DNA from: Phyllobates terribilis
Taxonomy: Eukaryota
Length of the DNA stretch: 64,000 bases
Reading direction: 5' to 3'
Assembly: GCF_046119375.1 (NCBI RefSeq)
Contig: NW_027365894.1
Span: 1 to 64,000, forward strand
The notes under the pieces are model-generated. The model had not been told where the DNA came from. It saw nothing but the letters and a program-made list of their open reading frames with translations, and searched no databases. How positions within the stretch are numbered: the stretch's first letter is position 1; each line of letters opens with the position of its first letter. The position numbers were made by a program, and so were the translations under genes. This document shows, one piece after another, positions 12,275 to 44,486 of this stretch.

Positions 12275-12339
12275 CTTTAATAATGCATAAGTGCTTGTGT
12301 TCAATAATTTCATAGGTCCTTTTGCTCAAGAGAAACACA

Positions 12340-14015: not shown

Positions 14016-14097
14016 ACTAGTTGTTGTCCAAATGTGTGTTCTTGAGCTTGAGGAATATAAAGCTTAAAGCTACATCTGTTTGGGACCTATTAATGTC

Positions 14098-17624: not shown

Positions 17625-17716
17625 ATCGTAAAACTAAAATACGTTCATTTTTGTTTTTACATCACTTGCTCAACAATTCTAATACTATAGGACAACTAAT
17701 CGGTTCAAAATCTCAG

Positions 17717-17864
17717 TGCTATGATATGAGAGAGTAAGAGATGAGAGAAGAGACTTGACTTCTTATTAGGTCACCAATAGGAGCCTTATATAGAGGTTAC
17801 AAGGAGAATCTAGGGTTTCTAGAATGTACATCCATAATATAATATAATATAATATAATATAACA
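17717..17864 (-). repeat. Bianca 3' LTR (148 bp)
   Basis: TG...CA termini, (AATAT)n microsatellite, adjacent PPT. Confidence 0.97.
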
Positions 17865-17982
17865 CTCCCCCTTGGATGTACATTATATACTGCCTCATTA
17901 AAAACCTTGTCTTGGAAAAACCCAATGGGATAAAAACCAAGACTAAGGGAAAAAGAGTGCAGTCACAATGCTCCCCCTTAAT

Positions 17983-21513: not shown

Positions 21514-21894
21514 TCTATACAAACAAGAAAACAAAGTATTAATAATTCAAATTACTACTCTTCAGCTAACTGAACAAAATAAAAAAAAGTTTTGCCAAGT
21601 ATACGACTTACAGTAACACTTGTACTTCGAATTGAATTAATATATTAAATTAGAAAGATTAACTCATTAACATACAACTAAAATATACTAAAGACGTTCG
21701 AAAAAAGAAAAAAAAATCATATCAAAATATTATTCTAATAGCAAAAAGTCACTACACTTGCAAATAAAACTAGCTAACGGAAGCAAAAGAAAGATCTCTA
21801 AAAGGATAATTCCGAGAGGTCCTTCTATCTTATTACAACTGGAAAAAAGAAGAAAAATAAAATAAAATAAGGAAATCTAAGTAGTCACTAGTAT

Positions 21895-22959
21895 TTAATC
21901 CATGAAGAATTTTGCCTCTTCAGGAGTGAAGTCACCGAAGACAGTGTTCATTTCGGGCAAACTTTCATCATTTCCAAGGTTGTCAAAGAAATCAGATGTT
22001 TCCAACCCGGTGTTGTGTGTCTCAAGATTTGTGTCATCAGGGTTGGCATTTGTGAAGTTCATTTCCACATTTCTACTCTTTTCTTGTAAAGAGTCCTGAT
22101 ATGCTGCCATAAGATGCGTTGGTGCACGACAAGTGCGAGACCAATGTCCTGTCCCTCCACATCTATAGCACACATTTTCCACTTGAGTTGCTGACTTCTT
22201 TTGTTTGCTTCCAATGCTCTTCTGGACATTTGAGTCACTCCATGTGTGGTTGCGGTTTTCTCCACGCCCTGATCTACCACGACCGCGGTAGCGACCACGA
22301 CTCGGGTTTCTTCCACGCCCTCTACGGGAGGAGGAGGCGTTTGCTTCAGGCAATGCTTGAGACTAATCAGGAAGTGGTGCTGAACCTGTGGGGCGAGTTT
22401 GATGATTGTTCAAGAGAAGCAGGTTATTCTCTTCAGCTACGATCAAGCAAGAGAGAAGCTCGGAGTATGTTTTGAAACGACGCTCCCTATACTGCTGCTG
22501 GAGTATGAGGTTGGATGCATGGAAAGTGGAGAATGTTTTCTCGAGCATATCTTCATCTTTGATTGTTTCCCCACAAAGTCTTAATGTTGAGACAATACGA
22601 AACATTTCAGAGTTGTATTCCGAGACCTTCTTGAAATCTTGTAACCTTAAATGCATCCATTCGAACCTTGCACGAGGCAGGATGACTATTTTCTGGTGGT
22701 TAAACCTATCCTTTAGGTTTTTCCAGAGTTCAGATGGACTCTTGACTGTAAAGTATTGAGCCTTCAAATCCTCATGAAGGTGATGCCGAAGTAGAATCAT
22801 TGCCTTCGCGCAATCCTGCGGGGATGCACCAGATTCCTTCTTGATTGTTTCTCCCAGGCTATTGCTGGTCAAGTGAAGTTCCGCGTCAAGGACCCATGTT
22901 AAATAGTTTCTTCCGGAAACATCAAGAGCGGTGAATTCCAACCTCGCAAGGTTTGTCAT
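21895..22959 (-). pseudogene. Bianca gag with RG-rich region and CCHC zinc knuckle; one in-frame TAG
   Basis: ORFs 22363-22959 and 21895-22353 share a frame; CYRCGGTGHWSRTC knuckle; ends with its own stop ~380 bp before the pol ATG. Confidence 0.93.
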
Positions 22960-24176
22960 CTATGATACATACACAAAACAAAATAAAATAAATGAGTTTG
23001 GTAGAAGATATTCTTATACTGTAATTTCGGTACTCACGTAAATCAATTTCATCAAACAAACTCACGTTATATTTCAAGTAAATGAAAGTTACTCAACAAG
23101 CAAAAATGCAATATTGAATTGTGAACGTAAAATCATTATTGTTAAGATATGCAAATAAAATCACATAAAATTTATCTTATATATAAGATTCTTTTAAAAT
23201 TAATATATATATATATTTTTAATCTAGACCTTAACCGATATTCCTTAAAACATGTTAGAAAAACCATACATATAACCTAACGCGGTTGTTTGACGCCGAA
23301 CACAAACATGTTCCAAATAAGCATAAAATACATGGTTAATGGTCACGTAAACCACTCTAATTGGGCTAGGTGAGTGCGAGCAAGCGGTGGCATAATTAAC
23401 AATGTTTAAAGACTGCGTTGCATGTAGTGATTAGGCTTTAATTTCATCTCTACTTTCCCGTTTTTTTTCTTCTCGAAGTCAACTCTTTTATCACTTCAGG
23501 GATGTTTGATTCATAAATTGAATCTCTTCCGGGATCTATTGATATTACTCCTGGTATCAAAATCATTTCTGGAATTGTCGTATGCATAAATAGGGAGAAA
23601 AAAAATAGCTTGTTTATCACTTCTGGGATTTTTCATTATCACTTCGGGGATTAATTTGTATATCACTTCTGGGATTTTTCATTATCACTTCGGGGATTAA
23701 TTTGTATATATTAATAGAATGAATTGATGTCACTTCTGGGATCTGGGAATTGTTATGTATATAAACGGGTATATAAAAAAAAACTGAAGGAACTATAAGT
23801 AAAGAAGTGACATATTTAAGTCAGAAATCCTCACAAGTCACAATCTAAAAATAATAATAATAAAATATCACTGCAAACATTTCGGCAAATCCTAGCAATT
23901 TGTGAAACAATAGAAATTTCAACATTTACGTAAACGGAGAGGATAAATCTTAAGAACTAAATTAGACACCATAAATTGATGAAGAGAGCCGTAGATTGAA
24001 TTATCAAAATATAACATGCAAAAGCAATTTGATGAAGAGAGCCGTATAAGACTATAAAAATTATCAAACGTGCCGATTGGTACGAATCTCAATCAAGTAT
24101 TAAGCACGAGTGATCAATATTTGATGCGTATAAGACTATAAAAATTAAGAATGAAAATCTACCTTGAATCAAGAGT

Positions 24177-24188
24177 GTGCTGATAACG
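24177..24188 (-). promoter_or_regulatory. Non-canonical PBS CGTTATCAGCAC (complementary to a tRNA anticodon arm, probably tRNA-Ile)
   Basis: Abuts the LTR-terminal CA with no TGG. Its reverse complement GTGCTGATAACG matches the recalled plant tRNA-Ile(AAU) anticodon arm GUGCU-AAU-AACG except at the wobble position. Confidence 0.75.
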
Positions 24189-24331
24189 TGCTATGATATG
24201 AGAGAGTAAGAGATGAGAGAAGAGACTTGACTTCTTATTAGGTCACCAATAAGAGCCTTATATAGAGGTTACAAGGAGAATCTAGGGTTTCTAGAATGTA
24301 TATCCATAATATAATATAATATAATATAACA
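24189..24331 (-). repeat. Bianca 5' LTR (143 bp)
   Basis: Near-identical to 17717-17864 and followed on the minus strand by CGTTATCAGCAC. Confidence 0.97.
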
Positions 24332-25042: not shown

Positions 25043-28000
25043 ATGGCGTCTCTAGGTTCTTTCTTGTTTCAACTCGATGGAGCCTCAGCCACGGAGGGAT
25101 CTTCTTCCGCAAGGTCTCCTGTTCTGGCGACGATTCGGCGAGGGAAGCCACTGGAATCACTAAGTTTTAGAAATTCGGGAAATGGGGGTTTAAGAGCTAT
25201 GAATGTAGCTAGCGAACGATCAGTTCGATTGTTTAGAAGAACAGGGAGTGGCTCTCAGATGATCGCACGGTTAAAGGCTGCCGGAAAAGATTCTGTTGGT
25301 GGTGATAAAGAGATCGATACGGAGGATTCTGTTCAAGAAATCATTCAGAAAGGGAAAAGGGTTTTGGCTGTTCAAAAGGAGCTTCTTGAAGAGGTATCGA
25401 ATGGTATTTCTATCTGAGTTTACAGTTCATTCTTTAATTCAGCATTAACTTGTGATTATCTTCTTGGATTCTTAGTTTCTGATAGAGAATATAAACAAAA
25501 CCAAGCTTCTGAAGGTCATCATGAATCATGAGTTATTACCAATATCGTGTTTGGTATTAGTAGTATTGCTGGTTTGGGTGTTTCTAATAGCGTACAACTA
25601 TTTTCAGATTGCTGAAAGGAGGAAACGTGTTGCTTCTATAAAGAGTGATATGAACAATCAAGAGAGCGGAAACTCTTCTATTATTTCCACCATTTCTGCT
25701 TCAAGCATTGAAGACTCGGTTGACAGTCGATTTTTGGATGAAGAATTTGTATTTGAATCTGCTCCTTCTATTCCTGTCAAGCTTCCTGAAACCCCAACTT
25801 CCAGTTTCAATGCTAATACACCACCTGAGCTGGTTGAAGTTAGTATGAATTCATCGCATCTGGGTTCAGTTGTAGGAGATGAAGTGATGAACACGACTCC
25901 AGATTCTCTGTCTATGGATTTTGACAGTTCTGAGCGTCTAATAAAGATTGATCATCTATCAACGTTCGAGAACTTACTTGGTAGTATGTATGAGCCTGCA
26001 CCTGTAGATGAGAATCCAGGCCCACTGGCTGGTGAAAATGTGATGAATATCATATTGGTTGCTGCAGAATGCTCTCCTTTTTCTAAAACTGGTATTATTC
26101 ATTACCTTTCAGGTAAAGTATATTTGTTTAATATACTATCAGCAGTTAAAAATGATGAGTTTTTTGTAGGTGGGCTTGGAGATGTGGCTGGATCTTTACC
26201 AAAGGCTTTGGCTCGCCGTGGACATAGGGTCATGGTAAGTGTTTGAGGATGCAGTTTTGAATACTCAAATTATCATTATGTATAAGTGTAAGTGATGACT
26301 TGTTTTTTATTACAAACTCCTTAGGTTGTGGTACCAAAATATGGAGATTATCATGAAGCTCAAAGAGTGGGAGAGTTAAGGAGGTACAAGGTGGCTGGCC
26401 AGGTAATTAGCTGAAGTTAGATTTGAACTATATTCTACTCAATGAAAGATGATAAGAAACGGTATAATATGTTCTGCAGGACATGGAAGTTGCGTATTTT
26501 CATTCCTATATCGATGGTGTTGATTTCGTGTTCATTGAAAGTGCAATGTTTCGCGGGATTGAGAGTAATATATATGGAGGAAGTAGACAGGTACACACAG
26601 ACTAATCTTTTAAACCCCCAATGAAATCTTTTTTAATTCATAATTCTTCAATATTTCTTACTTGATTAATCAACTTCACTTGGGACTCTTGTAATACATA
26701 TGCAGGATGTTTTCAAAAGAATGGTTTTGTTCTGCAAAGCTGCTATTGAGGTACGAGTTACATACCCAAATAATCACTCAGTTTTCATTGCATCATCATC
26801 TCATTTGGATCTTGATCATGATCTTGACCTTTCTGCAATTTAGTGTTCTCACATTGTTGTACTTTTTTGTTGGTCAATTTAGTGTGTTTTATACTTAATT
26901 CTAATTAATTTCAGGTCCCTTGGCATGTTCCTTGTGGAGGTATCGTCTATGGAGACGGAAACTTAGTGTTCATCGCAAATGACTGGCATACAGCTCTGTT
27001 ACCCGTGTATCTCAAGGCCTATTATCGTGACAACGGACTCATGACATATACAAGATCAGTCCTTGTCATCCATAACATTGCTCACCAGGTCCTTTTTCTC
27101 TTCAGATTCTCATTTTAACCATCAAAATTCATTCACAAATATTTGTCATTATAGAATTTTCAAGCCAATTTACATATAACTCATTGAACATTGTATGGAA
27201 CTTGGTTCATTCACAGGGCCGAGCACCGATGGACGATTTCCCCATCGCCGATCTCCCGGATCACTGGCGAGAAAACTTCCGATTCTACGACCCAGTCGGA
27301 GGCGAGCACTGCAACGTCTTCGCGGCGGGCTTAAAAGCCGCCGACCGAGTCGTTACAGTTAGCCACGGATACGCGTGGGAGCTCAAAACGCAAGAAGGCG
27401 GTTGGGGCCTCCACAACATCATCTCCGAGTGCGATTGGAAATTCCGAGGAATCGTCAACGGCGTCGACACAAACGAGTGGAGCCCGCAAACCGACATCCA
27501 TCTCCAATCCGACGGATACACGAACTACTCCCTCGAAACCCTCCGTTCGGGCAAGTCCCGTTGCAAATCCGCCCTCCAAGACGAACTCGGCCTACCCCGT
27601 CGCGACGACGTTTTAATGATCGGTTTCATCGGACGCCTAGACGGGCAAAAAGGCGTCGATATTATCGCGGACGCGATCCCGTGGATGATGAGCCAAGACG
27701 TTCAGTTAGTAATGCTCGGAACGGGTCGACCTGACCTCGAACAAATGTTGAAGCGGTTCGAGGGGCAATATAACGACAAGGCGCGAGGGTGGGTCGGGTT
27801 CTCGGTTAAAATGGCTCATCGGATAACCGCGGGGGTTGATATTTTGTTAATGCCGTCGAGGTTCGAGCCGTGCGGGTTGAACCAGCTTTACGCGATGAAT
27901 TACGGGACTATACCGGTTGTGCACGCGGTTGGTGGGTTAAGGGACACGGTTTTGCCGTTCGACCCGTTTAACGATACGGGTTTAGGGTGGACGTTCGATA

Positions 28001-28173
28001 GGGCCGAGTCGGGGAAGTTGATCGACGCGTTGGGAAACGTGTTGGTTACGTATAGAGAGTATAAAGAGAGTTGGGAAGGGATTCAGAGAAGAGGGATGAG
28101 TCAAGATTTTAGTTGGGATCATGCGGCTGAGATCTATGAGGAAGTTCTTGTTGCTGCTAAGTATCAATGGTGA
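25043..28173 (+). CDS. SS2: Soluble starch synthase II, plastidic (GT5); join(25043-25393,25608-26091,26170-26234,26325-26402,26480-26590,26706-26750,26915-27088,27217-28173), 754 aa
   Basis: All introns GT-AG and the frame is preserved (2265 nt). KTGGL motif across the exon 2/3 junction, [38 protein letters not shown]; C-terminus AAKYQW; N-terminal transit-peptide-like region. Confidence 0.96.
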
Positions 28174-29095: not shown

Positions 29096-29595
29096 CGTTG
29101 GAGTCCGGGTAACTTCGTGTAGACAACACTCTACGCGAGGGCTTGGGATGCTTTGGAGATTGATGTGAATTAGTTTTCGTGTAGCTGATGATGATCTTCG
29201 TATATGTTGGAACTTCGAGTTGCTTTGAGCTTCGTGTTGTCTTTGGCTTCGTGTACCTGCATTTCAAACCCAGAGGAGGGAGACCTCTGGATTTGACTCT
29301 CCGACGCTCAAGTTAGATTTCATTCGTGAAAACATTCTATGCGAAATATAGTTAATATAAATTGTGTGAGCCAGGGAAGAAGAGAAAAGGAGAAGTGTTC
29401 GCGAAAGTATTATGATGATTGCGTTCTGTGTAAGGATGTATACGAAGTATAAAGGGGGAGCTCTCAAATTACTACTAATAGCCGACTAAACAGTCATTAG
29501 TCGTTTTCACCTTTTAATCCCATATTTATAGGCCTGAGCCTATATTGGGCCGAGCCTTCCTATATTCTTATGGGCCCTCCTTAGGGGGTCCAACA
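29096..29595 (-). repeat. Retand 3' LTR (500 bp)
   Basis: Roughly 90% identical by eye to the split 5' LTR; outer terminal TG mutated to CG on the + strand. Confidence 0.92.
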
Positions 29596-29946
29596 TCCAC
29601 CCCCCTAGGGTTTATATGTATCCACACGTAAAGCGTAGTTTCACGTTGGAACCCTTCACATTAACCTGAATGCGTATAAACATGGGTCCATGTCGGTTGC
29701 CACGTGTCTGCCTCTGGTTGGGGGGGCTTTTGACTCCTCGATTGTATTATAAAAATGGGGTCTGACGCACGACTCTTCACTTTCTTCACCACTCACCCCT
29801 TTTCTGCAGCGTTTTCTCTCTAATCGTCCATCTTCTCCGATGATCTTCTCCTGGTCCTACGTCTGTTCTGGTTGCGCTGGCTCGTTGTTGGCATCGCGGG
29901 TTTTCCGTCCAACCTCCTACATCCCCTGCTCGTATCTCCGGTCGCC

Positions 29947-32515
29947 ATGTCAGGTTAGTTTCTCCTCCCTGGTTTAACATCTTCTTCTTACTTTATCGTT
30001 TGCATTTCTTATTCCGGCATATGATTCCGGCGAGGATGAGGTGGGGTTGTTGAGGCGGGGGAGGAAAACACCGGGAGCGGGGGGGGGGGGGGGGATCCAT
30101 CCCTACCTTTTCCGGACACTTTAAGGGGGGGTTTGTCCCTCGTCCCCCGTTGCCGCCTATTTCTTTTCCGGGCGCTTGGTCTTCCCGCTGTCACATCACG
30201 ATTGTCTTTTCAAATCCTTCCCTGTCAAATCTTTGCTCCCGACGTTTCAATTTCTTCACGCCTTTCGAGACGTCAAACAGGACAATTCCCCTTTTACCCC
30301 CCGTCTTTTGGTCTTCTTTAATTAAAACAAGCATCCAAGTTTTTTCTCGGGATTGATAAATGTTCTTTTCACGGATGTTTTAGTTTTTCCTCAAATAACA
30401 TTTCACGAGAATATCTTATATTTATCAAGCTCCTGAGAACTAACTGATGCTTAATTTAGGTTCTAATTCTTCGGACACTTCGAGTTCTACATCCTCGTCT
30501 AACGCCTCCTCATCTAGTACTAATCATGATGTTGCCCATATACATGTTGCCTTTGTGCAAGGTGAACAAGCTTTAGCAGCCCTCAGACCAGGAAACTCCA
30601 CTCTCGCGAAGCCCCTTGTCGAAATCCCAGAGGGCTACAAAGGCACGTGTCCACCCGTGCAGATTTACACTGGACGCATCAAGGGCTATAGACCAAAAGA
30701 CTTGGGAAATGAATTCGCAGGGGAGCGCTCCATTCTAAATCTCGCAAAGCTTCATAAGATCGCTAGTCTATATCCCTTTTTGAAAGGCACCATCTTGGCG
30801 CTTCTCGAAGAACGATGCAAGATGGCGTTCAACTACAACGACTGGTTCGCGATTAGTAAGCAAGCGATGGAGGGTGCCTTTCGTCTTCCCCTTCTTCCGT
30901 GGGTTAAATGATACTTGGAGGGGAATCGTTTTAGTCCCACTCAACTCCATCCGATGTTCTGGCGGGCAGTCACGGTCTATACAATGCGATCCCAGGACAT
31001 TGGTGCAAGACCTTCAGCTTCATGTTTTAACTTCGTATACTCGCCAAAGAAAATTACAGGCAAAGAGGGTTTATATTCTATGCGTACATCGGTGGAATTG
31101 GCATGGAAAATGCCTACGAATGAGACAGTGTGGAAGAAGCAGTGGTTCTTGACCCGTCTTCCCCCAGAAGACTCCTTCGCGTACCAAATTTAAACGAGTT
31201 TATATTTTTTGAATATATTTGTGGATAAGGACATTAAACGCAAGTATCTCGAAAAATACACGCACTATCCTTCCTCTTCTCTAAGAGTTTTTGTTCGTGA
31301 AGTGACCCACAAACTTTGTGAAGAGAGGGGACTCAGCCCTCCTCATCCTCCTCCCGGTTATCTTCACTACTACTTATTTTCAAAAAAAGGTTTTTACTAT
31401 TGTCTAATGTTTATTGTTATTGCGCAGGTGCGAGTTATTTCTCCCTCCTGGATTCCTTGCCCAACGTGGGCGCTAGGCGCGGCAAGAGTAAAGCAGCAAG
31501 TGTGGAAAAGTCGGGCGATGCTGGAGTGGAATCCGAGGGTGTTGATGGTGCTCCTCGCGAACAGAGTCTTGCAACCGACTCTCAACCTCATCCCAAGCCA
31601 CCATCTGGCGGCGGTGCTTGGGTTTTGCACAACAGAAAGGAAACCGAGGGTCCGTCCCCCAAGAAAAAGGGTTCTCGAGCCAAAAAGGTTCGTGAAGTTT
31701 GATCAAGTTCAAAATGGGAAGGCCCTCCCGACGATGTGATTCATTCCATAGAGTTTGTTTCTGTATTAATGGTGCCCGATCTTCTTCCTCCTCTTCCCTC
31801 GGTTATCCAAGACGAATTGGACAATGGGGTTGTTTCTCGCGAGCAACTACTGCTTCTGGTGGGTTTTTGTACTTTCGCATCTAACCTTATAAATTTTTAT
31901 ACTAATTAACCCGTTATCCAGGCTAGGCAACTCATTTATAAGGCAGCCTCGCATGATTCGGATGAGGAAAACCACAGCGACGTCATAGAGTCCCTTCGCG
32001 AGGATATGAAGAAAGTTACGAAGGAGGCTGAAGAGGAGAGGAAGGATAGAATTCGCACTGAGGAAGAGTCTGCTTGTGTTTCTAAGGAGTTGGATATTCT
32101 GCGGGCCCAGCATGCTAAGGAGATTGCCGACCTGAAGGGCAAGAACGCGAGAGAGGTAAGGGACGCTCGTTTCCAGTCCATCCATGAATATGTAAGCGGT
32201 TATCACGGGGCTTACCGTGCCTCCTACGACGGCAGCTACCGCATCTCTCTCTACCATATCATGACCAAGGCTCAGCTAGAGAAAAATGGGATTACGGAGT
32301 TTGTGTTGGATAAGGATGATCGCATGGGATATGAGTCATTTCCTCCGCCATATATCCCTCCACCTGCGGGCACTTTTGTCGATGATGGTGAGGACCCCCT
32401 GGAAGCTTGGGACGTTCGCGCTTTTAACCTTGGTGATGGGGTGGTTCCTGAAAAGCCCAGTTCTTTCCCAACCCTGCTGATGTCTTCTTCGCGACACCGC
32501 CTCCTACACCGCTGA
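29947..32515 (+). pseudogene. Spliced antisense accessory gene of the Retand element; join(29947-29953,30460-31356,31428-31858,31922-32515): Ser-rich N-terminus, Transposase_28-like domain, NLS, coiled coil
   Basis: Three GT-AG introns with matching phases (1, 1, 0); TATA-like TATAAAAA at ~29747; QLHPMFW and WKKQWF motifs; PSPKKKGSRAKKVR; three in-frame stops (30909, 31191, 31700). Confidence 0.72.
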
Positions 32516-32986
32516 CCTCTCCAAATCATACTGAGTGAATCCTCTTAATCATGATGACTTGAGAATTTTTGTTTGCTTGTACTTTGGAAGTTTGTATTTG
32601 TATTTTGCTTTTGAATCTCAACTTGCTACACTCTACCCCCTTGCTTTTTCGTGTTCTTCACACGAAACAGTAAGTATGGATTTTGCTATGAATTGCATTA
32701 CCCTTTGGAATATAATATCTTTCCTTACATAGGTCCTTACAACTTTTGAAAAGAAATAATGCGGTTATTGTGATTATTTAGTCTATCTTGTCTCTGATAT
32801 ATCGCGTTGCTTGCATTCGTCTCATTAAGTTCTTCGTGTTATCCTGATTTTTGTTGTGAGTGCGACGTCTTCTTCTCTGTACGCGATGTTTCATTTGGTG
32901 AGGTTTTTGCAAAACATGCATTATTTTTTCGTGAACATGGAAAATTGGGAAGAATGTTTTACCTTTTACTTCTTTTCGATTGATTG

Positions 32987-33145
32987 TGCTCCTATTGGAG
33001 GCTTTTGCTTCACTCTCTCGTGAAGGCTTATCTGATAAATGCTCCTATTGGAGGCTTTTGCTTCACTCTCTAGTGAAGGCTTATCATATCAATTCTCCTG
33101 GGCCAGGGAGGCTTACTTGGCATTGCTCCTCATTGGAGGCTTATA
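32987..33145. repeat. 53-bp tandem repeat (2 full and 2 partial units) in the Retand 3' region
   Basis: TGCTCCTATTGGAGGCTTTTGCTTCACTCTCT.GTGAAGGCTTATC at 32987 and 33040. Confidence 0.85.
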
Positions 33146-33489
33146 AGGCTTTTAGAGTGCTTCGCATGAAGAAGGTTTTGTTATTCTGAGAACAAAGTTT
33201 ATTTTGTCAGAATTACCAAAGTGTTATATAAACGTGTGTTTTTTATGGTGGGTATACCGTACCTCAAAACTCGCGTAATGAATTATTCTAGAGTTAGCTT
33301 ATTCCTCCGTTTGACGGGGTTTTATTCAATTTCTGATAACGACTGTATAGTTAGTATTGTCGTTTCGCGATAACTTAGATTCGAATGTATTAGGTTAGAA
33401 GGTATACCTGACGGGTATGGCTTCAAGGATAATACCTCCGTAACCGCATCACGTTCCATGAGTTCGCGATGCGGTTACAGGTAAAGTCT

Positions 33490-36400
33490 TTTAGCCTATC
33501 TGCTCACAGGGCTACTTCGTCATCCACAATGTACGACCCCTCCCAGCTCGGGTCCAACTTACCGCCCTCGGTTTTGCACAGAACGAGATCACCCTTCGCG
33601 AAACCTCTTGCCTTAATAGACTTGTTATAATATTTAGCGACCCCGGCTTTGTAATTAGCGGCTCAAATAGTAGCCATGGCTCTGATTTCCTCGCGTAGCT
33701 GGAGTTCCATCTGCATTTTTTCACCGTTCGTGATGCTATCAAAGTGCATCATTCTATCGTTGGGGAAGAGATGTTCCACTGGGACGACTGCCTCTTTTCT
33801 GTAAGTCAACACGAATGGAGTTTCGCCCGTTGCCTTTTTACTGGTAGTACACCAGCGCCCTCCATTTCCATCGCACACCATCTAATCGTTTCTTCAGATC
33901 GGTGACTATACTTTTGTTCACAACCTCCACTTGGTCGTTGCAATGGGGGTGTGCTACCGACGCGAACTTGAGGCGAATGCCGAGGTCATCGCACCACTGT
34001 ACAAGCTTTGGAATGTTGAATTGCGACCCTCTATCTGTGACTATCTCCTGCGGTAATCCGTAACGACAAACAATGTTCTGCCAGAGAAATTTCTTAATAT
34101 TGGCTACGGTTGTATTCGCGAGCGGTATGGCCTCAATCCATTTTGTGAAGTAGTTTTTTGCTACGATGATGAACTCCAACTGTCCCAGTGATTTTGGCGA
34201 GAAAGGGCCTAGTAAATCCAAACCCCACACCGCGAAAGGGCAAGGACCGACCATGATCTGCATTTCTACCCCCGGCTGATGGGATGCCGGTGCATGACGC
34301 TGACATGCCTGACACTCGCGTGCATACTTAAGTGTGTCTTTTCTCATGGATAACCAGTAGTGTCCTTGGCGTAGGGCCTTGTACACCAGCGCCCTCCATC
34401 CGGCATGCATTCCACAAAGACCAGCATGCAGTTCTACGATCATATTTCTACCATCTTCTACCGATAGACACCGCAACTCCCTGCTCATGAACCCCCTTTT
34501 GTACAATTCGCCCTGGTTGATGTAGAAACGCGCGACCTGTACTTCTAGTTTGCGCCTCTCCCAAGGATTCTCCCGGGCAACATCGTCAACTAGATATTTC
34601 ATGATCGGACCGCGCCAGTCGTCAATGGCCATATCTATAGCCATTATTTCGAATAGTTGCCTTATAGCCCTTTCATTACTTCGTCGTGTCCATACGGGTT
34701 TAGAATCTCTACTTTCTTCCTTCAGCCTTAATCTTGATGTCATCTTCGCGAGATTGTCTGCTTCCTCATTCTTATCGCGAGGGATGATCGTGAGCAATAA
34801 TTATTTGAACAGAGAGAAGAGGGTCCCAGCCCTTGCGAGATATTTTGGAGGTTACCAATCTTGGCTTTGTATATTCCCTGCATCTGTTGTACGATTATCT
34901 CAGAATCGCAAAAACACTATACTCTCTCTACGGATATTGCTAACGTGATCTCCATCCCTGCTATCAACGCTTCATATTCAGCCTCATTGTTGGTCGCGGC
35001 AAAGTTCAAATTAATTGCATGCTTATGAACTGTCCCTTCTGGCGAGATGAGAGCTACGCCTGCCCCACAACCTTCTACGTTTACGACTCCGTCCATGTAT
35101 AACTACCATATCTTCTCATTAGTATCACTGATAGCTTCGCGAAAACTGGTCTCGGCAATAAAATCTGTTAATGCTTGTGCCTTGACGGCTGGCCTTGGTC
35201 TGTATTCAATGTCAAATTCGGACAACTCAATCACCCACTTCGTGAGTCTTCCGGAAGTCGTTGGCCTATGGAGGAGGCTGTATAAAGGGAGATTAGTTAA
35301 TACTTGGATGGTGTGGGCTTGGAAATAGGGTCTCAATCTACGCGATGCAACCACTAACGCAAAGACAACCTTTTTCTACTAGGGTGTAGTGCTCTTCAGT
35401 GGTGAGTAGTGCTTTGCTCACAAAATAGACAAGTTTCTCAGATTCGCGAGTTAATACTGCGCTTACTGCCTTCTCATTGGCTGAGATGTACAACTGTAGG
35501 CTCTCACCTGGGATGGGGGAAGATAGTGTTGGAAATTGGGTGAGGTGTTCTTTGAGCTTCGCGAACGCCTCTGAACAGTCATCTGTCCACCGGAATTTTT
35601 TTGGCCTCCTCAGCACATCGAAAAATGGCAGATTTCTTTCAGCGAGCTTTGCGCAGAATCTTCCCAAGTAGTTCACGGATCCGATGAATCTTTGAACTTT
35701 GTTGATACTTCGTGGCGGCTCCATATCAAGAAGCGCTTTGACCTTCGCGGGATTTACTTCGATCCCACGATTGCTGATCTGAAATCCCAGGAACTTTCCT
35801 TCCGTTACTCCAAATACACATTTCTTGGGATTCAGGCTCATCCCGTACTTACGCAAAGTATCAAACACCTCTAACAGATCGCTACATGATCTTCTTGTTT
35901 CTTGCTCTTAACGACGACATCGTCCACGTATGCCTCCACGGTTTCCCCCATCATTCCCCTGAAGATCTTATCCACGAGGTGCTGGAAAGTAGCCCCCGCG
36001 TTATTCAGCCCAAATGACATCACTTATAGCAGAAGGTGCCCTTGTCTGTGATGAAAGTCGTGTGTTCAGCGTCGGCGGGGTTCATGGGTACCTGGTTGTA
36101 CACTGAGTACGCGTCAAGAAAACTTAATGCCTCATGTCCAGCAGTGGAATCGACAAGCTGGTCGATGGCAGACAGCGGATAACTGTCTTTCGGGCAGGCA
36201 TTGTTCAAGTTTGTAAAATCTACGCACATGCACCATTTCCCGGTATCCTTCTTGGGTACCATTACAACGTTCGCGAACCATGTGGGATACTGAACGGGCT
36301 CCACAAATCCTTCCTTGAGGAGCTTCTCTAACTCCGTCCTCGCGGTTACGTTTTTAGGCCTTGCTTGTTTCCGTTTACGCTGTTGTTTTGGCACTGAGTC

Positions 36401-38550
36401 TGGGTGGATGGCCAAAGAGTGGTTCATGACTTCTGGAGGAATTACTTTGAGATCGCGAGGTGTCCAGGCAAAGACATCACGCGATCCAGACAAAATCTTC
36501 ACAATTTCTCTCATCACCGAGGGTTGCAACCCTCTTCCGACAAACAACTTCTCGTGGTCAGATTCAAATGACGCAATGGTGTCTTTCGCGAGGGGTACTG
36601 GAACTTTGGGCTGAGTGTCTAAAAAGGACGGTGTTCGCGGATCGAACTCTGCTTCTTCCTCATCACCAGGAGAGCTTACGTATACTTGGCTAGTGTGAAC
36701 TGCTTTCTGCTTGCCCTTATCTACAGAGTGATAGCAAGTTTGACTCTCCTATTGGTTTCCGCGTGCAATTACTGTGCCGCAGACTATCGGAACTTCACAC
36801 ATAAATGACTGATCGAGACACTTGCTTCAAATCTGGTTAGCGAGTCGGGGCATATGAATCGCGTTGTAGGAGGATGTCATGGGAATGACAAGGAAATCAA
36901 CAGAAAATTGTCTTCGTGGACCTCTTGTATCTCCGAGAATCATCTCCAGGGTGATCACCCGGATGCCTTCACCGAATCACCTGTACACCCTACGAGGTTG
37001 CACTGCGTTGGCTTTAACTGGATTTCATCAATGCCCAGCTTCTCGAAGGCATCCCAGTACAAGATATCCGCTGCGCTGCCAGTGTCGAACATGACTCTCT
37101 TCACGATCTTTGTGTCGAGTTGTATGCGGATCACAAGTGGATCTGCATTTCGCGTGGCCCACTCGTTTATATCTTTTCGCTGAACGTCACTTGATACGAC
37201 TCTCGCTTTTCTTCTCTCACGAGAATAAGGGGCCTTCTTGACAGGGGAGTGGCATTGGATGACCTTCGTTGCTCTGCCCTACCCGCGAGTTTGGGGATGT
37301 GCCTTCCCGAGATGGTACCCACGAACCCATCAAGCTGAGGGAAATGCTGGGCCGGGCCGCGATTGGTTTGCTCACGACGTGGTGGGTTTGCCCCGGTTCG
37401 TTGTGCGGCCATCACTCTTTGATCTTCCATTTTTGCTTCCCGTCTGATAGAGCGACACTCTGAGGAATCATGATTCGTGGTGTTATGCCTTTCGCACCAC
37501 ACAAGTCTTTGTTCAATTGCTCTCTTTCCCTACTGGCTACCTCCCTGGGTGACATTGGCCATAATATTTTGGGTTTTGGATCTCCCTTGTTGATCTCTTG
37601 GCTGCATGATGTTTGCTCGTGTATCATACTCCTGCTTCCTCGATCGGTTCTAATCATGATGTCTCTTCGACCCCCAGGATTGGTTGCCTCTCCGACCCTG
37701 GCTGCGCGAGCCTTGGCCGGTTATCATCTCACCCTGAATCTGTTCATAGGCCTTTTCCAACATCCCCTCATACGTGATTCCCTTCTTTCTGCTCATTATA
37801 TCCTTGAATTTTGTTCCGTCACACAAACCGCAAAGGAACGTGTAGCATGCCATGTCGTCTTTAAAATCACTGGCATGAATAACAACGGTTGTGAATCTTG
37901 CCACATAATCAGCCAGGGACTTGTCTGGGCCCTGTTGGATGCCTGTTGTATGTTGCATTACAACTTCTTACTTTCCTGAGGCACTTAAATGTGTGAGGAA
38001 CCTACTTTCAAGATCTGCGAAGCTGTTTATAACACCCTTGGGTAAGCCTAGAATCCAGCTCAGAGCTGATGCGGATAGAGTGTTTGGAAAACCCTTGCAC
38101 ATCGTCGCATCGTCAGCGTTGCTTGCGAGCATGCGGTAACGGTACCGGCTGGCATGTTCAGTGAGATCTTCCTTACCCGTGTAATCTTTCACCGCCGAGT
38201 ATTTGAAGTCTCCGCGCACGGTTGCGCACGTTATATGCTCTGCAAAGATTATGGACGCCTCGCGAGGTTGCCTTGGAGCATATATGGGGAAGTAGGGGTT
38301 ACGAGGGAAAGAGGGTGGGCCATTAGCGTACATAGGTGTTCTCGCGTGAGGCTCATGGTATGGCTGTTCATGAGACAGCTGGAACTGTGGTGGAAATCGT
38401 GGCCGCTCTATACCACGCCTGTGCTCTGGACTGTATGGTGTGCGGTCATAGTAATTGTACGTATCCATGTATGTATCACGAGAGTAGTAGTCGGAGGGGT
38501 GCTCTAGTTCGTGCCTCTGTCACGGCGGGATCCGTCTGAGGAACGGACAT
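33490..38550 (-). pseudogene. Tat gag-pol (gag, PR, RT, RH, archaeal-type RNase H, integrase), disrupted
   Basis: Gag YTGKEDLTEH...MCKGFPNTL; PR MFDTGSAADILY; RT FLDAYSVYNQV...; RH GRLTKWVIEL; aRH ATNNEAEYEAL (~34960-35000); IN GLDLLGPF, TDRGSQF; C-terminal GKLDPSWEG. Confidence 0.93.
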
Positions 38551-39179
38551 GGTTCTCCATGTATTCTCTCTAGTCCTAGAACTCTTCAAATTCCTCTTAA
38601 GACACCCACGCAAAGTTGGGGCGCAGAGTGGTGGTTGATTGTTCTCCGTGGACACTGTCACTTGGAAGGCCTTCTAGTCTTACCATCGCGAAATGATTGT
38701 CTTAACTTCGTGAGAAAATTCCCACAGACGGCGCCAGTGTTGGAACCCCGGGTAACTTCGTGTAGACAACACTCTACGCGAGGGCTTGGGATGCTTCGGG
38801 GATTGCTGCGAATTAGTCGTCGTGTAGCTGATGATGATCTTTGTATAGGTTGGAACTTTGAGTTGGCTTTGAGCTTAGTGTTTTCTTTGACTTCGTGTAC
38901 CTGCGTATCAAACCCAGAGGAGAGAGGCTTATGGATTTGACTCTCCGACGCTCAAGTTAGATTTCATTTATGAAAGCATTCTATGTGAAATATAGTTAAT
39001 ATAATTTTTTTGCCAAAGATAAATAATTGCATTAATTACAAGTGTCGACAATCATGCTTACAAGAGTCGTCTAGTCATAGCACGTCCCCTCCTACCCTTA
39101 ATTTTAAGACAAACAAGACATCTAAATTTACAAATGTCAATAATCCTCCTAGTTTCAACTTCAAGGTCTACAACCTTCC

Positions 39180-42100
39180 TTTTGAAAATCACCTCATTCC
39201 TAAGGATCCAAGTATGATAAATGACACAAGAAAGGCAATGAGTCGACTTTGGTAGACATTGTTGCGCTTTCTAGAACAGGCACCAAACTATCTCCACCAA
39301 TCCAGCAAGTTGTCCAGTCGGGTCTGGACCTTCTGTCATGCCAGAACCTTATCCAGAATTGCAGCAATAATCGGGCACTGAAACCATAGATGCTCAGCAG
39401 ACTCTATAGCAGCCAAACACAGGCGACAACTAGAGGTCGGAACAATACCCCAAGAGAAAAGTCTACCAGCAGTAGGAAGTCTATCCCAAGTAGCCAACCA
39501 GCAAGTGATACCCCACTTCCTAGGCACAATCCCATCCCACAACACCTCACACCAATCCACAATAGCACAAGGAGGATGAAAAATATCATAAACCCGTACA
39601 TTGTCCATCTTCAGAGGACGTCCCCGCTCAAACAAGTCAGGCAAAGTATTTGTATGATTAAGGATCACAAACCTGTCTTTCGACCCTCATGAGACTCCTC
39701 CAAAGCCAAGAGCTACCCGCTTTCGGAACAGAGCACCAGACACTACCATGGATCACCAAATTACGCTTAGCCCAAGCAGTCCAGAGATTCTCCTTACCAG
39801 AATGTATATCGAACACAAGTTTCATCAGCATAGTGTTATTCCAAGAAAGCAATTCCTTGAAATTAAGTCCCCCTTCCTTCCATCTTCTAGTGACACTCTT
39901 CCACGCAACAGGGGACTTCTTGCTAGCAACTAATCCTACCCACATAAAACTCCGACACATCCCTTGAGCAAGTTTAATGATTGCTTTAGGGAGAGCAAGC
40001 ACTTGCATCCAGAAAGTCAAAATGCTCTCAAGGACAGCTTTGCATACATGCATCCTGCCAGCATAAGACAAAACTCTAGCATTCCTAGAGTTAATAGCTA
40101 CCTACATCCTCTCAAGTAGAGGTCAAAACTCAGAGACCTTCAGCTTCTTGCAACTCAAAGGGATACCAAGATATCTCACAGGCCATCTCCCAAGGCCAAA
40201 GGCCATAAACTCTGCAATAGCTTCCTTCCTTTCACTACTAACACCATCAAGGAAAATCCTAGACTTTTCAGGGTTAGTAGACAGACCAGATTCGGCAACA
40301 AAGGAGGAGAGGAAATCCTTGATCATCTTCAGGGTAGAATCAGTCGGTTTACAGAACAGAAGCAGGTCATCAGCAAAAATAATGCTAGAGAGGCCAATCT
40401 GCTTACAACGAGGATGGAAAGAGAAAACCCTGGTCTTTCTTAGTACAGACAACTTCCTCTAGAACACTTCCATCACCAGGACAAACAGATAAGGTGAGAG
40501 CGGACCCCCTTGTCTAAGTCCTCGCCTACCCTGAAAGAACCCTTTGGACTCACCATTAACCAACACAGAGTAAAAAGGAGAACAAACACTAGCCATAATA
40601 AGTTTCACCAACTGGCAAGGGAAGTTAAAGAAATTGAGACACTTTTCCATGAAATCCCACGGTACACTGTCATAGGGCTTCTGCAGGTCCACCTGAATCA
40701 AACATCTAGGAGATATAGTTATACTACCATAGCCTTTAAACAAATCCTGAGCCACGCAAATATTCGATGTGATGGACCACCCCGCCATGAAAGCTCCTTG
40801 ATTCTGTCCCACAATCACATTCAACAACGACTGAATTCTTTCCACCATAATCTTAGAAATAGCTTTAAAGGTAGTATTACATGACGAGATAGGCCAAAAC
40901 TGCTTAATAGAGAAAGGTTCCTCAACCTTTGCAATGAGGAAAATGAAAGTAGCATTCACTTGCTTAAGCATACGACCTCTCCTAAAGAAGTCCTGAACCG
41001 CTGCAACAGCGTCATCTCCCACTAGCTTTTAAAGAACCAGCTACCAAACCCATCCGGCCCAGGATACTTCGTATTACTGCTCCCGAAGAATCCCTTCTTA
41101 ATTTCATCCCGCCCTGGTTGTGCACAAATCAATGGATGAGTCAAACAATCAATAAAAGGCCCCGGTATGCCCTCAAAACACTGAGAGACTGGAGGTAAAT
41201 CAGTCCCCCAAAAGATTAGAATAGAACTGAACAATCTCAACAACAATATCCCCTGGATCCGTGATCATTTTTCCCGCATCGTTAGTCAACGAACCGATTG
41301 TATTTCCGGCATGTCTGGTCTTAATGTTCCTGAAAAACATAGGCGAGGTTTCCTCCCCATACCTAAGCCAATCCAGCTTAGCTCTTTGTCTCACAAAGCA
41401 CTCCAACTGTAACAACCGCAATTCAAGCTCCTTCTTAGCACTCTGAACTCTCAGCTGCTTCTGAATGTTACTGAAATCATCATGGAGATCAACATGTGCT
41501 TCTCTCAGGTCTTTGGACCCCTCCTCAACCATAATCTCAAGATGCCTGAACCTCCCTTTTTGCCAACCTTTAAGAGTAGTCTTAACATACTTCAACTTAG
41601 TAGCAAGAATAAACCGAGGATTACCAGAAACAACACCATTGCAATGCTTTTTAACAAGATCAGAGAAATCTTCCTCTTCTGTCCAGAAACTCCTAAATTT
41701 AAAAGGAAAAGCTTTGACAGAAATCCCAGGATCGACGCAAAGAATACCTGGCGAATGGTCGGAACAACCAAGATAATCAAAGAAGACATTAGTAGAAGGA
41801 AAGGCGTGACACCATGCAGAATTAGCCACGAATCGATCCAGCTTACACGCCACTCTCTGAGTGCCAGATTATTGGTTACTCCATGTGAATTGAGCACCAC
41901 TGTAGTCTAGGTCAACAAGATCATTCGCAGAAAGTACCGCCTCCAATTCATCTGTACCACACTGAAATCGTCTAGTAAAACTCTGCTTATCGGCCACATC
42001 CAACAAGCAATTAAAGTCTCCCAAAACAGTCCAAGGAAAACTCCGAATATTAAGATCGTTCAAATCCCGCCATAAACAATCTCTATCCTCTCTAGCATTC

Positions 42101-42441
42101 ATACCGTAAATAAATAAAGCCAGAAAAGCAATCTCATCGGAAAGGCTTCTAATAGAGCAATCTATGAATTGACTAGCGCACCGTAAAACAATAAGACTAA
42201 CCTCCGCCTTATTCCAAGTCACCCAAATTCTACCTATCTCAACCAGAGTACTATTAGTTACAAAATCTCATCCATTCATCAACTGATGAGCCTCATCAAC
42301 TTCCTTTTCCTTTCTCACTTTGGTCTCAAGTAGCCCAATAACATGAATCTTATGTCGTGCGACGAGCTCCTTTATTAACTTCAACCTAGAGGGAGAGCCA
42401 CATCATCTAGTATTCCAAGCACAAATGGTTGTATTAACCAT
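39180..42441 (-). pseudogene. LINE ORF2 (AP endonuclease, RT, zf-RVT), multiply disrupted
   Basis: APE GLLETKV, VLGDFN, KLDRF, SDHSP; RT PGPDGF, GLRQGGPLSPYLF, FADDL, RYLGIPL; C-terminal CRLC...EHLWFQC. Confidence 0.92.
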
Positions 42442-43922
42442 TAGAACCACGTTTGAGCCTGCTACCGACTTTAACCGAGGAACGGGTAATAGTCCCCTTA
42501 GAAGACTTAGAGGAATTATCTTTCTGCGTGCAGGCCTTAGAGGAATTCACATCAGGAGGTTGCAAATCCACATTTGCAGTTCCTTCAATTTCTGCTGTCC
42601 AATTTCTGCTGCAATTCTAGGTGCTTCATCAGAGACAACATCAGTAAATACCACATCAGGAGGTTGCAAATCCACAACTGCAGTTTCCTTCAATTTCTGT
42701 TGTCCAATTTCTGATGCAATTCTAGGTGCTTCATCATAGACAACATTAGTAAACACCTCTGACTGTCCAATTTCTGCTGCAAGAACATCAGTCCCGGATA
42801 CATTGACCTGCTGCTTCACCTGAGGTAATGGTTGTTGTTCTGCAGGGATTATGACAGTAGCTGCACATGCCACAACCAATTCTGTTTCCTTCAAGTCAGC
42901 ATCAAGCAAAACCTCGGACTGAACCACCTCTGCTGCTAAAACCTCAGTCCAGATACATTGATTTGTTCTTCAATTCTAGGTGATGCCACATCAGTAGAAA
43001 TGCGTGAAAGTGCACTAACCTTAGGAACCTTGCAACGCTTGGTTACATGACCAAACACCCGGCACTTATCACATACAAACGACACCCATTCAAACCATAT
43101 TCTCTGGATATATTCACACCCTGTTTTTCTTTGAAGAACGATATCACCCTTCAAAACATCTTCAACACAAACAGAGATCGGTATACGCACAAAATTGGAC
43201 TTTGTCTTAGATAAATACAAGTCATCTCGGCTAATCGACACACCGATCATACTACTAATAACATTGATCATTCTTTTTGTCTTGAAGATTGGGTTAATGT
43301 GCCAAAGACGAACCCAAACCGGAATACTTTCAAAGTTATTCCAAGAAAACCGCATACCGATCTCCCAACGCTGCAACGCCAAAGGAAATATCCCCAAGAG
43401 AAGCCATGTATTATAGTTCAAAACTGCAAGTAAATCTGTTTCAGATGTGAATTCGAACCTCCATATGCCATTGTGTCTAGCCTGAATTTGCACATCGACC
43501 GTCGGCCAATAACTCTTGACGAACGCATACATCTCAGTCACCGTCGCGCTAGCCCCAGTGATACCGCCCATCAGAATGTATTCGAATTGCTCTTGAACCC
43601 TACACACCTCCTCTTCATCAAAGGTATAAACTTTACGATCCAAAAGCTCGATCTGCTCCAATGATTGATAGATCGAGCAATCCATGACTGTTTCATCGTT
43701 ACAAATCACCGCAGGGCCATCATCCATGCCCAAACAAGTATCACGGAGCCTTTCCTGCAAAATTGAAGTCCTATCGTCTCCGCCAGGCAACTCCAAACCA
43801 GCACCAATCGAAGCGCAACCCTGTGCGACGCCCTCCCCTAACGACCGAAGGCCGGCGTGGCCCACCGGAGGCATAACTTCTGGCGCACGCAACCAACGCG
43901 AGAGAAGAGAAGAAAGGAGCAT
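42434..43922 (-). pseudogene. LINE ORF1 (DUF4283-like region, CCHC knuckle, repetitive acidic C-terminus)
   Basis: IPVWVRL, CDKCRVFGHVTKRC; stop at 42936 and a frameshift near 42580. The ORF1 stop overlaps the ORF2 ATG (ATGGTTAA). Confidence 0.85.
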
Positions 43923-44486
43923 GATTAGGGTTTGTGCTGATATGATACTTTACTAATTGATTCCTACATTATTTTTATAGTTAATATAAATTGCGTGAGG
44001 CAAGGAAGAAGAGAAAAGGAGAAGTGTTCGCGAAAGTATTATGATGATTGCGTTCCGTGTAAGGATGTATACGAAGTATAAAGGGGGAGCTCTCAAATTA
44101 CTGCTAATAGCCGACTAAACATCATTAGTCGTTTTTACCTTAAAATCCCCTATTTATAGGTCTGAGCCTATATTAGGTCTCGTTCTCTTCCTTGATGGAC
44201 CGAGCCTTCCTATATTCTTATGGGCCCTTCTTAACAGATACAAATAGTATGTTAAAGTTAATTTAAAAACCTTCTAGAGAATAAAATATCTTTGAAGCGA
44301 TTTAATAATTCAAGAATTTGTCATCCAAAAAAAAACTTTTTCTAGCTAATTTTCGTGTTCGCTTGCATTTCTAGAGAAAGCTCATTTTCTGAATATTGTA
44401 ACAGTAACCCCGTCAAAAGGTGCTCCCATGGCGAAAGTCAAATGAATCAAGCCACGTATCCTGCCTTTCCTTTCTCTCTCTGTTCC

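Follow-up and report, generated by a model that had tools for sequence, protein, structure and literature searches.

What the antisense TRP28 open reading frame (ORF) of Retand retrotransposons is for was left as an open question in PMC7264820 and PMC11963269, and PMC7264820 called for a search for antisense and spliced transcripts. The question was taken up at one locus of a window of 64,000 nucleotides (the whole stretch of NW_027365894.1 analysed), in which the original prediction had placed a four-exon antisense gene inside a Retand element. The contig is plant DNA within an animal (Phyllobates terribilis) assembly, which corrects the reading of its source. The element had the following parts:

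29096..29595, minus strand: 3' LTR, about 500 bp, matching the split 5' LTR at 90.8% and 86.5%
29596..29609, minus strand: polypurine tract, a minus-strand purine run adjoining the 3' LTR
33946..34446, minus strand: integrase (INT; zinc finger and core), by domain match
34744..35108, minus strand: additional archaeal-type RNase H (aRH) between RNase H and integrase, by tblastn with the sister-copy domain (Pfam RVT_3 in sisters)
35295..36259, minus strand: reverse transcriptase (RT) and RNase H (RH), broken, by domain match
36434..38690, minus strand: gag and protease region, broken, with approximate boundaries
38721..38736, minus strand: putative primer binding site (PBS), a stretch beginning TGG and adjoining the 5' LTR
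38738..44233, minus strand: 5' LTR, outer end cut short, interrupted by a 5-kb L1-type LINE (about 39004-43975)

The minus-strand order of RT (35776-36259), RH (35295-35589), aRH (34744-35108) and INT (33946-34446) was that of Ty3/gypsy with an additional RNase H, and was identical by Pfam in L034. Placement in Retand was upheld by the aRH between RH and INT, the antisense 3' ORF, and the sizes of the LTR (about 500 bp) and of the POL-3'LTR spacer (about 3.9 kb), both inside the Retand ranges of PMC11963269 (315-1194 bp and 2.9-6.6 kb). The extra ORF sat 3' of pol in antisense, and gag started shortly after the PBS; in Ogre the extra ORF is 5' and on the sense strand. The outer end of the 5' LTR was lost in the window copy, so that the TSD was unreadable.

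The antisense gene and its surroundings were resolved as follows:

29699..29708, plus strand: G-box/ABRE-like GCCACGTGTC, about 45 nt upstream of the TATA box, missed by the original prediction
29748..29755, plus strand: TATA-like box of the antisense gene, TATA[AT]A in 42/44 copies
29947..29953, plus strand: coding part of exon 1, a micro-exon of 7 nt, phase 1, with the ATG at 29947 (kept in 25/25 own-genome loci and in 14/14 less decayed copies)
29954..30459, plus strand: intron 1, 506 nt, GT/AG conserved, sister lengths 454-564, without codon periodicity
30460..31356, plus strand: exon 2, Ser-rich stretch and globular TRP28-like domain, homologues with PF04195, stops at 30909 and 31191, pN/pS 0.21
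31357..31427, plus strand: intron 2, 71 nt, phase 1, place and phase common to families B, C and a third family
31428..31858, plus strand: exon 3, low-complexity linker and basic NLS-like cluster (31652-31693), stop at 31700, pN/pS 0.28
31859..31921, plus strand: intron 3, 63 nt, phase 0, with an in-frame stop within; the junction before Ala-Met also occurs in family C
31922..32540 (end approximate), plus strand: exon 4, long helix or coiled coil with an acidic, Pro-rich tail that is conserved, a frameshift near 32450, pN/pS 0.20, by cross-family alignment

Exon number, micro-exon and intron lengths agreed with what had been predicted: the introns had GT..AG borders and a branch-like CTAAC or CTAAT each, and phases 1, 1 and 0 carried one frame. 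All three predicted in-frame stops were found, in exons 2 and 3. The terminal stop assigned at 32513 was spurious and off-frame, as were the last 20 or so residues, because of the frameshift near 32450; in sister copies the frame ended near 32520-32540. Inactivity of this copy was likewise confirmed, with damage exceeding the earlier count. The window copy is a decayed accessory gene, antisense in a Retand-type plant retrotransposon, and its full spliced product is predicted to be one protein of about 640 residues.

The TATA-like box, TATAAAAA at 29748, was present as predicted. It formed a conserved pair with the G-box, CACGTG occurring in 35/44 copies of families A, B and C and a G-box again upstream of the TATA box in two loci of another plant, L086 and L093; the claim of an own promoter keeps the standing of a prediction from these motifs. 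An ER-stress element around the G-box is no more than a lead, its occurrence being too patchy (ACGT-N12-TTGG spacing in 12/44 copies, 11 of them family A; the exact form CCAAT-N10-CACG in 4/33 copies).

Conservation was read in 30 own-genome loci, the window included, a locus being counted only where the site was covered. Donor GT was kept at 23/25, 25/28 and 22/25 loci for introns 1 to 3, and acceptor AG at 24/27, 23/28 and 19/25. In the 14 less decayed copies, chosen from 147 protein matches mostly by a long open exon-2 frame and not by splice sites, the six splice dinucleotides were kept 14, 14, 14, 14, 13 and 14 times, compared with 4/71 comparison GT/AG in non-coding parts kept in at least 13 of these copies. 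Five of the 14 were stop-free over all four exons in the carried phase. Intron interiors drifted or diverged among sisters while the ATG and the splice dinucleotides stayed.

Purifying selection on the spliced frame was detected in all three long exons (shared-variant pN/pS 0.20-0.28; singletons 1.2-1.5), and close copies gave dN/dS of about 0.1-0.25. Conservation by codon position was 0.88/0.91/0.67 in exon 2, 0.84/0.87/0.64 in exon 3 and 0.85/0.89/0.71 in exon 4, and flat in intron 1. No column of the spliced frame had a stop as its commonest codon; the minus-strand mirror frame had 9, 4 and 6 such columns.

Intron positions were conserved in families B and C and in the third family, which consisted of L158 and L159 only out of 20 loci (the rest being mostly family-C relatives or too broken); of 13 metagenome loci, L089 and L090 were left out of the intron reading. 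Family C, at about 33% protein identity, had all three introns at matching places. The micro-exon measured 7 nt here; family C had one of 13 or 19 nt and the third family one of 16 nt, in phase 1 throughout and in steps of three. The introns were not universal: elements of other plants had intron 2, of equal phase, at a nearly equal place and behind the same domain, but no micro-exon intron.

The gene is very probably real and spliced, as read from the DNA. It is highly improbable that exons 2-4 are instead separate or frameshifted antisense ORFs with GT/AG kept by sense-RNA constraints: the PMC11963269 survey draws separate ORFs, and in most family-C copies the length of intron 2 is divisible by three and the intron is often open, encoding a hydrophobic stretch, but all six dinucleotides, the branch-like sites and the phases were kept where neighbours were not, intron lengths shifted out of frame, including changes common to several copies (in 9/30 family-C loci intron 2 had the same change in length, by 1 nt), exons 3 and 4 were without start context of their own, and the micro-exon varied only by threes. 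A membrane-anchored, env-like reading of a 530-aa family-C frame was rejected, its hydrophobic stretch being intron 2 read through.

An antisense gene with its own promoter was already known; the exon structure and the motif link described below were not found in print. The literature consulted did not describe introns in Retand antisense genes or TRP28-tied family motifs; Steinbauerova 2011, Gomez-Orte 2013, Kejnovsky 2006, Ohtsubo 1999 and the data tables of PMC13547354 were outside its scope and may bear on novelty. The antisense ORFs surveyed in PMC11963269 (104 in 63 clusters, some TRP28 ORFs shorter than 600 nt) share with this gene a place between pol and 3' LTR, antisense orientation, the TRP28 homology, an Smc-like coiled-coil second part, and the LTR and spacer sizes. 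The survey was based on ORF Finder and mentions neither introns in its text nor an element-wide motif, whereas the ORFs here belong, as exons, to a single gene that has a coding micro-exon. Gene23 of maize Grande (Gomez-Orte 2013, as cited in PMC7264820 and PMC11963269) is similarly an accessory gene in antisense, with an upstream promoter of its own and a nuclear product, but those citing accounts, as far as available, give it no introns, G-box or target motif. If ORFs of this kind are exons, earlier counts of ORFs, lists of domains and constructs for localisation rested on fragments, and translation truly starts half a kilobase upstream, on the micro-exon.

The predicted protein began with the expected Ser-rich stretch (13 Ser among the first 25 exon-2 residues) and carried the basic NLS-like motif (PSPKKKGSRAKKVR at 31652-31693), a cluster present in all families read. 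As to the charged coiled coil, exon 4 of a sister copy was predicted as a single long helix (residues 17-127) with a low-confidence tail. The predicted Transposase_28-like core was weak in the window copy alone (14.2 bits, E 0.053, against a Pfam gathering cut-off of 26.2 bits for PF04195) and was recovered as homology through relatives. Two unbroken sister frames scored 16.6 and 18.6 bits, also below the cut-off, and two others had no match to the Pfam PF04195 profile; family C scored 41.3 bits, and 16/17 phmmer relatives matched PF04195, 11/17 above the cut-off. The protein is, by sequence comparison, a divergent Transposase_28 (PF04195) relative lying below the Pfam cut-off. ESM Atlas linked it at 0.95 to two PF04195 clusters, with a recognition of 2122 that is under the tool's mark of 2300.

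In a 796-aa RefSeq model from Diospyros, a single chain combined TRP28 with a basic linker and a stretch resembling a coiled coil; the BLASTP match of this protein to exon 4 was weak (E 0.003) and of coiled-coil type. ESM Atlas gave leads only, at 0.75-0.78, to full-length TRP28/DUF1633 clusters, and word-index protein searches for longer relatives returned 0, 0 and 1 protein. The sister-copy exon-2 model (pLDDT 77, pTM 0.78) gave no convincing fold match with Foldseek (best E 0.4 in PDB and 0.95 among viral models) or with VIA-align (best Z 2.3 over 48,161 chains); the exon-4 model had no Foldseek match, and a PDB sequence search gave a single match (E 0.25). These searches show a domain without a solved relative; they do not show a new fold. 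In Tat lineages III and V, likewise, a 3' ORF in antisense encodes a globular domain, joined in V by a coiled coil, at an equal position (Ustyantsev 2015, PMC4408406; Neumann 2019, PMC6317226, both as partly available), but in the older Tat lineages and Ogre that domain is PMD (PF10536). When its profile was compared with a shallow alignment of four PMD sequences, the TRP28-like protein showed no likeness to PMD, and no PMD relative was found in PDB by sequence.

The DNA of the element carried a repeated short motif:

29096..39012, both strands: family motif CGCGA / TCGCGA, element-wide, densest in pol

TCGCGA occurred 21 times in the window element against 2.9 expected, and 0-4 times in six neighbouring stretches; CGCGA occurred 33 and 35 times on the two strands. 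Density was 6.2 sites per kb in pol, and intron 1 of the window copy had none. Counts of TCGCGA were 9-25 in 9 family-B loci and 2-3 in 6 family-C loci; in 6 family-C loci CTCGAC occurred 30-41 times vs 8-13 expected, and the third family had a third motif (CGGCTA 14 vs 2.9; CGACTA 11 vs 2.2). In four family-B pol frames CGCGA stood 16-33 times where synonymous permutations gave 4-7; none of the 100 permutations reached the observed count, and total CG showed no rise. Five family-C frames had CTCGAC 4-7 times vs 1.4-2.1, although 3/5 equalled or stayed below the permutation maximum. In an unbiased 5-mer scan the family motifs ranked top (z 5.1-7.5, against a z of no more than 4.6 in four control sets), and three coding sets from other plants had no 5-mer above controls. 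About half of the motif sites shifted between subfamilies while the total stayed at 22-38. Each family had its own CG motif, written even into pol through synonymous codon placement.

Such motifs are a concrete candidate ligand for the predicted protein. The preferred reading, quite possible but a little short of an even chance, is of an accessory protein that recognises the motif of its own element. Antisense transcription would start from the gene's own G-box/TATA promoter and be spliced to give one protein. That the introns survive retrotransposition would be soundly explained by the gene being antisense to the genomic RNA, since only the opposite strand would be packaged and copied. The protein would enter the nucleus (it has the basic cluster, and GENE23 of Grande is nuclear), bind DNA, as predicted in PMC11963269, dimerise through the long helix and find its target in the CG motif of its own family, whose DNA would be kept transcribable by anti-silencing or activation.

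The model for this reading was VANC of the VANDAL DNA transposons (Hosaka 2017, PMC5735166, as partly available), which is also encoded by an intron-containing accessory gene of the transposon and binds a short motif, proper to each family and present in many copies; coiled-coil dimerisation is predicted for VANC21 in the available part of PMC13547354. By this analogy the Retand protein is a candidate VANC-like self-recognition factor, with somewhat less than an even chance of being one, and an anti-silencing effect as in VANC is possible but doubtful. VANC has a DUF1985/PMD-like domain, belongs to Mutator-like elements and has motifs of 8-9 nt in non-coding tandem repeats (PMC5735166, in the part available), whereas the Retand gene has a TRP28-like domain in a retrotransposon with CG motifs of 5-6 nt dispersed mostly in coding DNA, and binding and demethylation are putative. 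The family-specific short motif in many copies was found here; its gathering in non-coding tandem repeats was not. The link between motif and protein comprised only three families of one plant, which share ancestry and are not independent. The wider proposal is rather unlikely as a whole: that the TRP28 gene of almost all active Retand elements would encode a spliced, host-factor-driven, sequence-specific anti-silencing protein, VANC-like, with a CG target present hundreds of times per family and a domain without a solved fold. If true, sequence-specific anti-silencing would no longer be confined to DNA transposons but would reach a retrotransposon lineage that is among the largest in flowering plants.

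Enriched hexamers also occurred in other elements of the window (AAGCGC 35 vs 8.5 in 1-17000; GGCCGA 11 vs 0.9, most of them lying in the LTRs that belong to the 57396-64000 element), and motif studding is therefore not unique to TRP28 carriers. Decay of the CpG type was not significantly lower at motif CGs than at other CGs in family B (47/682 vs 242/2772, p = 0.12) or family C (15/115 vs 165/821, p = 0.08) and was equal in family A (70/354 vs 171/887), so that this indirect test gave no sign of lasting hypomethylation. Enrichment in elements where a TRP28 gene was not found or not sought, and the missing methylation footprint, suit a different role, possible though on the unlikely side, in which the product of the spliced gene helps the life cycle in the manner of retroviral accessory proteins (import of the integration complex into the nucleus, export of RNA, or tethering to the target site) and the motif has some other origin, for instance recognition by Gag, by integrase or by a CG-box factor of the host. 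Such roles are proposed in PMC7264820, and a basic NLS-like cluster with a long helix suits an adaptor. However, the near equality of the motif on both strands fits recognition of DNA better than of RNA, and a fixed host factor explains poorly a motif that varies among families with differing TRP28 proteins.

The gene could also restrain its own element, its protein repressing the LTR promoter or its antisense RNA interfering or pairing with the genomic RNA, which would limit copy number as with the antisense genes of HTLV. A motif-binding protein could equally repress or activate, the separate G-box promoter permits separate timing, and PMC7264820 discusses a regulatory role of antisense transcripts and dsRNA. 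Restraint is nevertheless improbable, in that selection acted on the protein frame and not on RNA alone, and a pol-less 4.5-kb element retaining gag and the antisense gene is easier to understand as a benefit to the carrier (a weak point).

It is very improbable that the protein is an ASY2-related scaffold, of the chromosome axis or of meiosis, which steers the element into germ-line chromatin; this reading leaves the family motifs unexplained. A Transposase_28 region is part of the ASY2 model as well, so the likeness may be circular. Products of ATLANTYS, an Arabidopsis Ty3/Gypsy element, combine a globular domain with a long helix, resemble ASY2 structurally and were found from long-read transcripts (10.1101/2024.04.02.587720; PMC13547354); the text of these sources, as far as available, gives neither strand nor exon structure. 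In predicted models, the Retand protein had the same two-part build.

The features listed for the antisense gene in the original prediction, three in-frame stops included, were each found in place; its last residues and stop codon were off-frame owing to a frameshift near 32450, and in sister copies the frame ended near 32520-32540. The claim that intron positions are conserved in sister copies was upheld. In an alignment of 30 of the 42 DNA matches from the same assembly, the ATG was present in all 25 copies covering the site, and splice dinucleotides were retained in 19-25 of 25-28 covering copies. Most losses came down to single substitutions, G-to-A or the like, in copies that had decayed. 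Variable positions in exons 2, 3 and 4 were third codon positions exactly in the frames predicted by splicing, and intron 1 had no codon periodicity in this alignment. Purifying selection on the spliced frame was also borne out: pN/pS of variants shared by at least three copies was 0.21, 0.28 and 0.20 in exons 2, 3 and 4, against 1.3, 1.5 and 1.2 for singletons. Intron 1 had a pN/pS of 0.7-0.8 across all six frames, and the minus-strand mirror frame had 0.31-0.39, yet was full of stops. The contrast between shared variants and singletons therefore indicates that the protein was selected during the activity of the lineages, and that copies decay neutrally once inserted.

A protein search of the assembly returned 147 matches, of which 14 close (family B) and 6 distant (family C) were taken. 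The family-B copies were chosen mostly for long open exon-2 frames; all six splice dinucleotides were intact in 13/14, with introns 1, 2 and 3 of 454-564, 69-91 and 61-76 nt, and only 4/71 other GT/AG in non-coding parts were equally well kept. Five of the 14, including one whose tail was shifted, had no stop across the four exons when the phase was carried through.

Family C had 32-35% identity in exon 2 and no blastn similarity. Splice sites were read by eye at 30 family-C loci: 25 had an ATG micro-exon, in phase 1 and of either 13 or 19 nt; the intron-2 donor was present in 27 and the acceptor in 30, and the intron-3 donor and acceptor in 29 each, with the Ala-Met junction unchanged. Nine of the 30 loci shared a 1-nt change in the length of intron 2. 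In about 19 family-C loci (L045-L080) intron 2 was a multiple of three, and stop-free in several, so that ORF finders call a protein of 530 aa whose membrane helix is spurious; intron-2 retention may be a real isoform. Both loci of a third family (L158 and L159) had a 16-nt phase-1 micro-exon, and L159 had intron 2. A metagenome scan gave 13 loci of plant TRP28 elements. All five non-redundant loci read had a T-rich phase-1 GT..AG stretch behind the globular domain, joining it to the basic, coiled-coil frame, and none had a micro-exon intron. This stretch lay about 7 residues before intron 2 of the window (alignment at 15% identity), and the two positions are likely near-identical, not exact. 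Several database proteins called as unspliced stopped within a few residues past this position, and a Diospyros RefSeq model spanned all parts in 796 residues.

Exon 2 of the window scored below the Pfam cut-off for PF04195. In a full HMMER search 16/17 relatives matched PF04195 (11/17 above cut-off), and family C passed. The exon-2 domain of a sister copy was modelled over about 235 residues (mean pLDDT 77, pTM 0.78), far exceeding Pfam's 69 positions, and no solved structure matched it in structure and PDB sequence searches. Exon 3 formed a linker, and each of the families read had a basic cluster in it. Exon 4 was predicted as a 110-residue helix; its Pro-rich acidic tail was conserved, with low model confidence.

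The host element was laid out as follows.

29096-29595, minus-strand element: 3' LTR
Adjoining the 3' LTR, minus-strand element: polypurine tract
Between 3' LTR and integrase: 3.9-kb spacer holding the antisense gene
After the spacer, minus strand: integrase, additional RNase H, RNase H, RT, gag
38721-38736, minus-strand element: PBS
38738-44233: 5' LTR, LINE-split and cut short

Ogre and Retand are the lineages marked by an additional RNase H placed between RH and INT (PMC6317226); of the two, Retand is favoured by the antisense gene on the 3' side and by the shortness of the LTR. The copy is an old insertion, because its two LTRs differed at 35/495 aligned bases and its pol was broken. An L1-type LINE (DUF4283 and RT; 39004-43975) had inserted into the 5' LTR and lay between the two copies of a 13-nt duplication.

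The window contig had plant-type content (starch synthase, copia, plant mobile domain-type (PMD) families). Plant-type matches (element DNA, TRP28, PMD) were all on small contigs (C3132-C8465); the large chromosomes had none, and carried an animal-type actin (L106), whose start reads like vertebrate muscle actin. The window therefore very likely comes from a plant whose DNA was assembled together with an animal genome, and the element would belong to that plant, not to the assembly's species.

In families A (the window's own), B and C, TATA[AT]A was present in 42/44 copies and CACGTG in 35/44, spaced 43-46 nt; ACGTG[TG] occurred in 15/258 control windows. The same pair, about 20 nt apart, was found in two elements from another plant (L086 and L093). 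Plant bZIP and bHLH factors bind G-boxes.

A k-mer count gave 21 TCGCGA in the window element (2.9 expected) vs 0-4 in six neighbouring stretches. TCGCGA was also common to family B; family C instead had CTCGAC/CGACGA, and the third family CGGCTA/CGACTA. These family motifs headed an unbiased 5-mer scan. Against 100 permutations of each pol frame's own synonymous codons, family-B frames had 16-33 of their own motif (4-7 permuted; above all permutations in 4/4) and family-C frames 4-7 (1.4-2.1 permuted; above the maximum in 2/5). The other family's motif was not above permutations, and total CG was unchanged. The motif's sites were split almost evenly between the two strands (33 and 35). When subfamilies sharing 74-78% identity were compared, about half of the sites coincided, with counts steady at 22-38; by these comparisons, motif sites turn over.

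Beyond the observed layout, selection, homology, promoter motifs and family motifs, a host factor at the G-box would drive the antisense transcript, which would be spliced like any plant mRNA; introns would be retained because packaged genomic RNA carries them in reverse. The protein would enter the nucleus, probably dimerise, and read the family motif along the element. Such recognition is a tentative reading, judged slightly short of an even chance, and an anti-silencing effect is rather unlikely. VANC, the anti-silencing proteins of VANDAL DNA transposons, are the closest working model; there, protein and short target motif evolve together (PMC5735166). Against self-recognition, three sets from other plants had no comparable standout 5-mer, other elements of the window also had enriched hexamers, and motif sites had no significant reduction in CpG decay. 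An accessory role (import, export or targeting) is rather unlikely as well, and self-restraint less likely still.

An antisense TRP28 gene with its own promoter and nuclear product was already known (PMC7264820, PMC11963269). A 2020 review called for a search for spliced antisense transcripts (PMC7264820), and a 2025 survey of antisense ORFs did not mention introns (PMC11963269). A literature search, with four primary papers and Arabidopsis long-read tables outside its scope, found no paper on this exon structure or on family motifs; neither appeared in the available portions of PMC7730604, PMC13392006, PMC11728184, PMC12844716, PMC5418596, PMC5499772 and 10.1101/2024.09.27.615353. Databases do contain gene models in which proteins of this kind are spliced, so the splicing may already be recorded there without remark.

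Elsewhere in the window, AAGCGC (35 vs 8.5 expected) ran through copia-like remnants at 1-11600, another motif-studded element. A tandem array (14228-15772; units about 120-130 nt, one inverted), a nearly complete Ty1/copia element (17716-24329; 142-nt terminal repeat at 99%) and a starch synthase-like gene (Glyco_transf_5 and Glycos_transf_1; 25476-28173), ending ~900 bases from the 3' LTR, were also present. A 6.6-kb LTR element (57396-64000; 1070-bp LTRs at 97.8%) had gag, no RT in its long frames, and GGCCGA repeats mostly in its LTRs. Between antisense gene and pol, family C had a tandem array of ~171-nt units (L045-L050, about 3850-6000, oriented) and family B two ~97-nt tandem units (L031-L044, about 4100-4500). 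A 4.5-kb element from another plant (L082:2689-7237; 511-bp LTRs) lacked pol and retained just gag and the antisense TRP28 gene. Contig C4644 of the window's assembly (G000:C4644:13113-21480) had seven tandem PMD-domain matches at 1.3-kb spacing.
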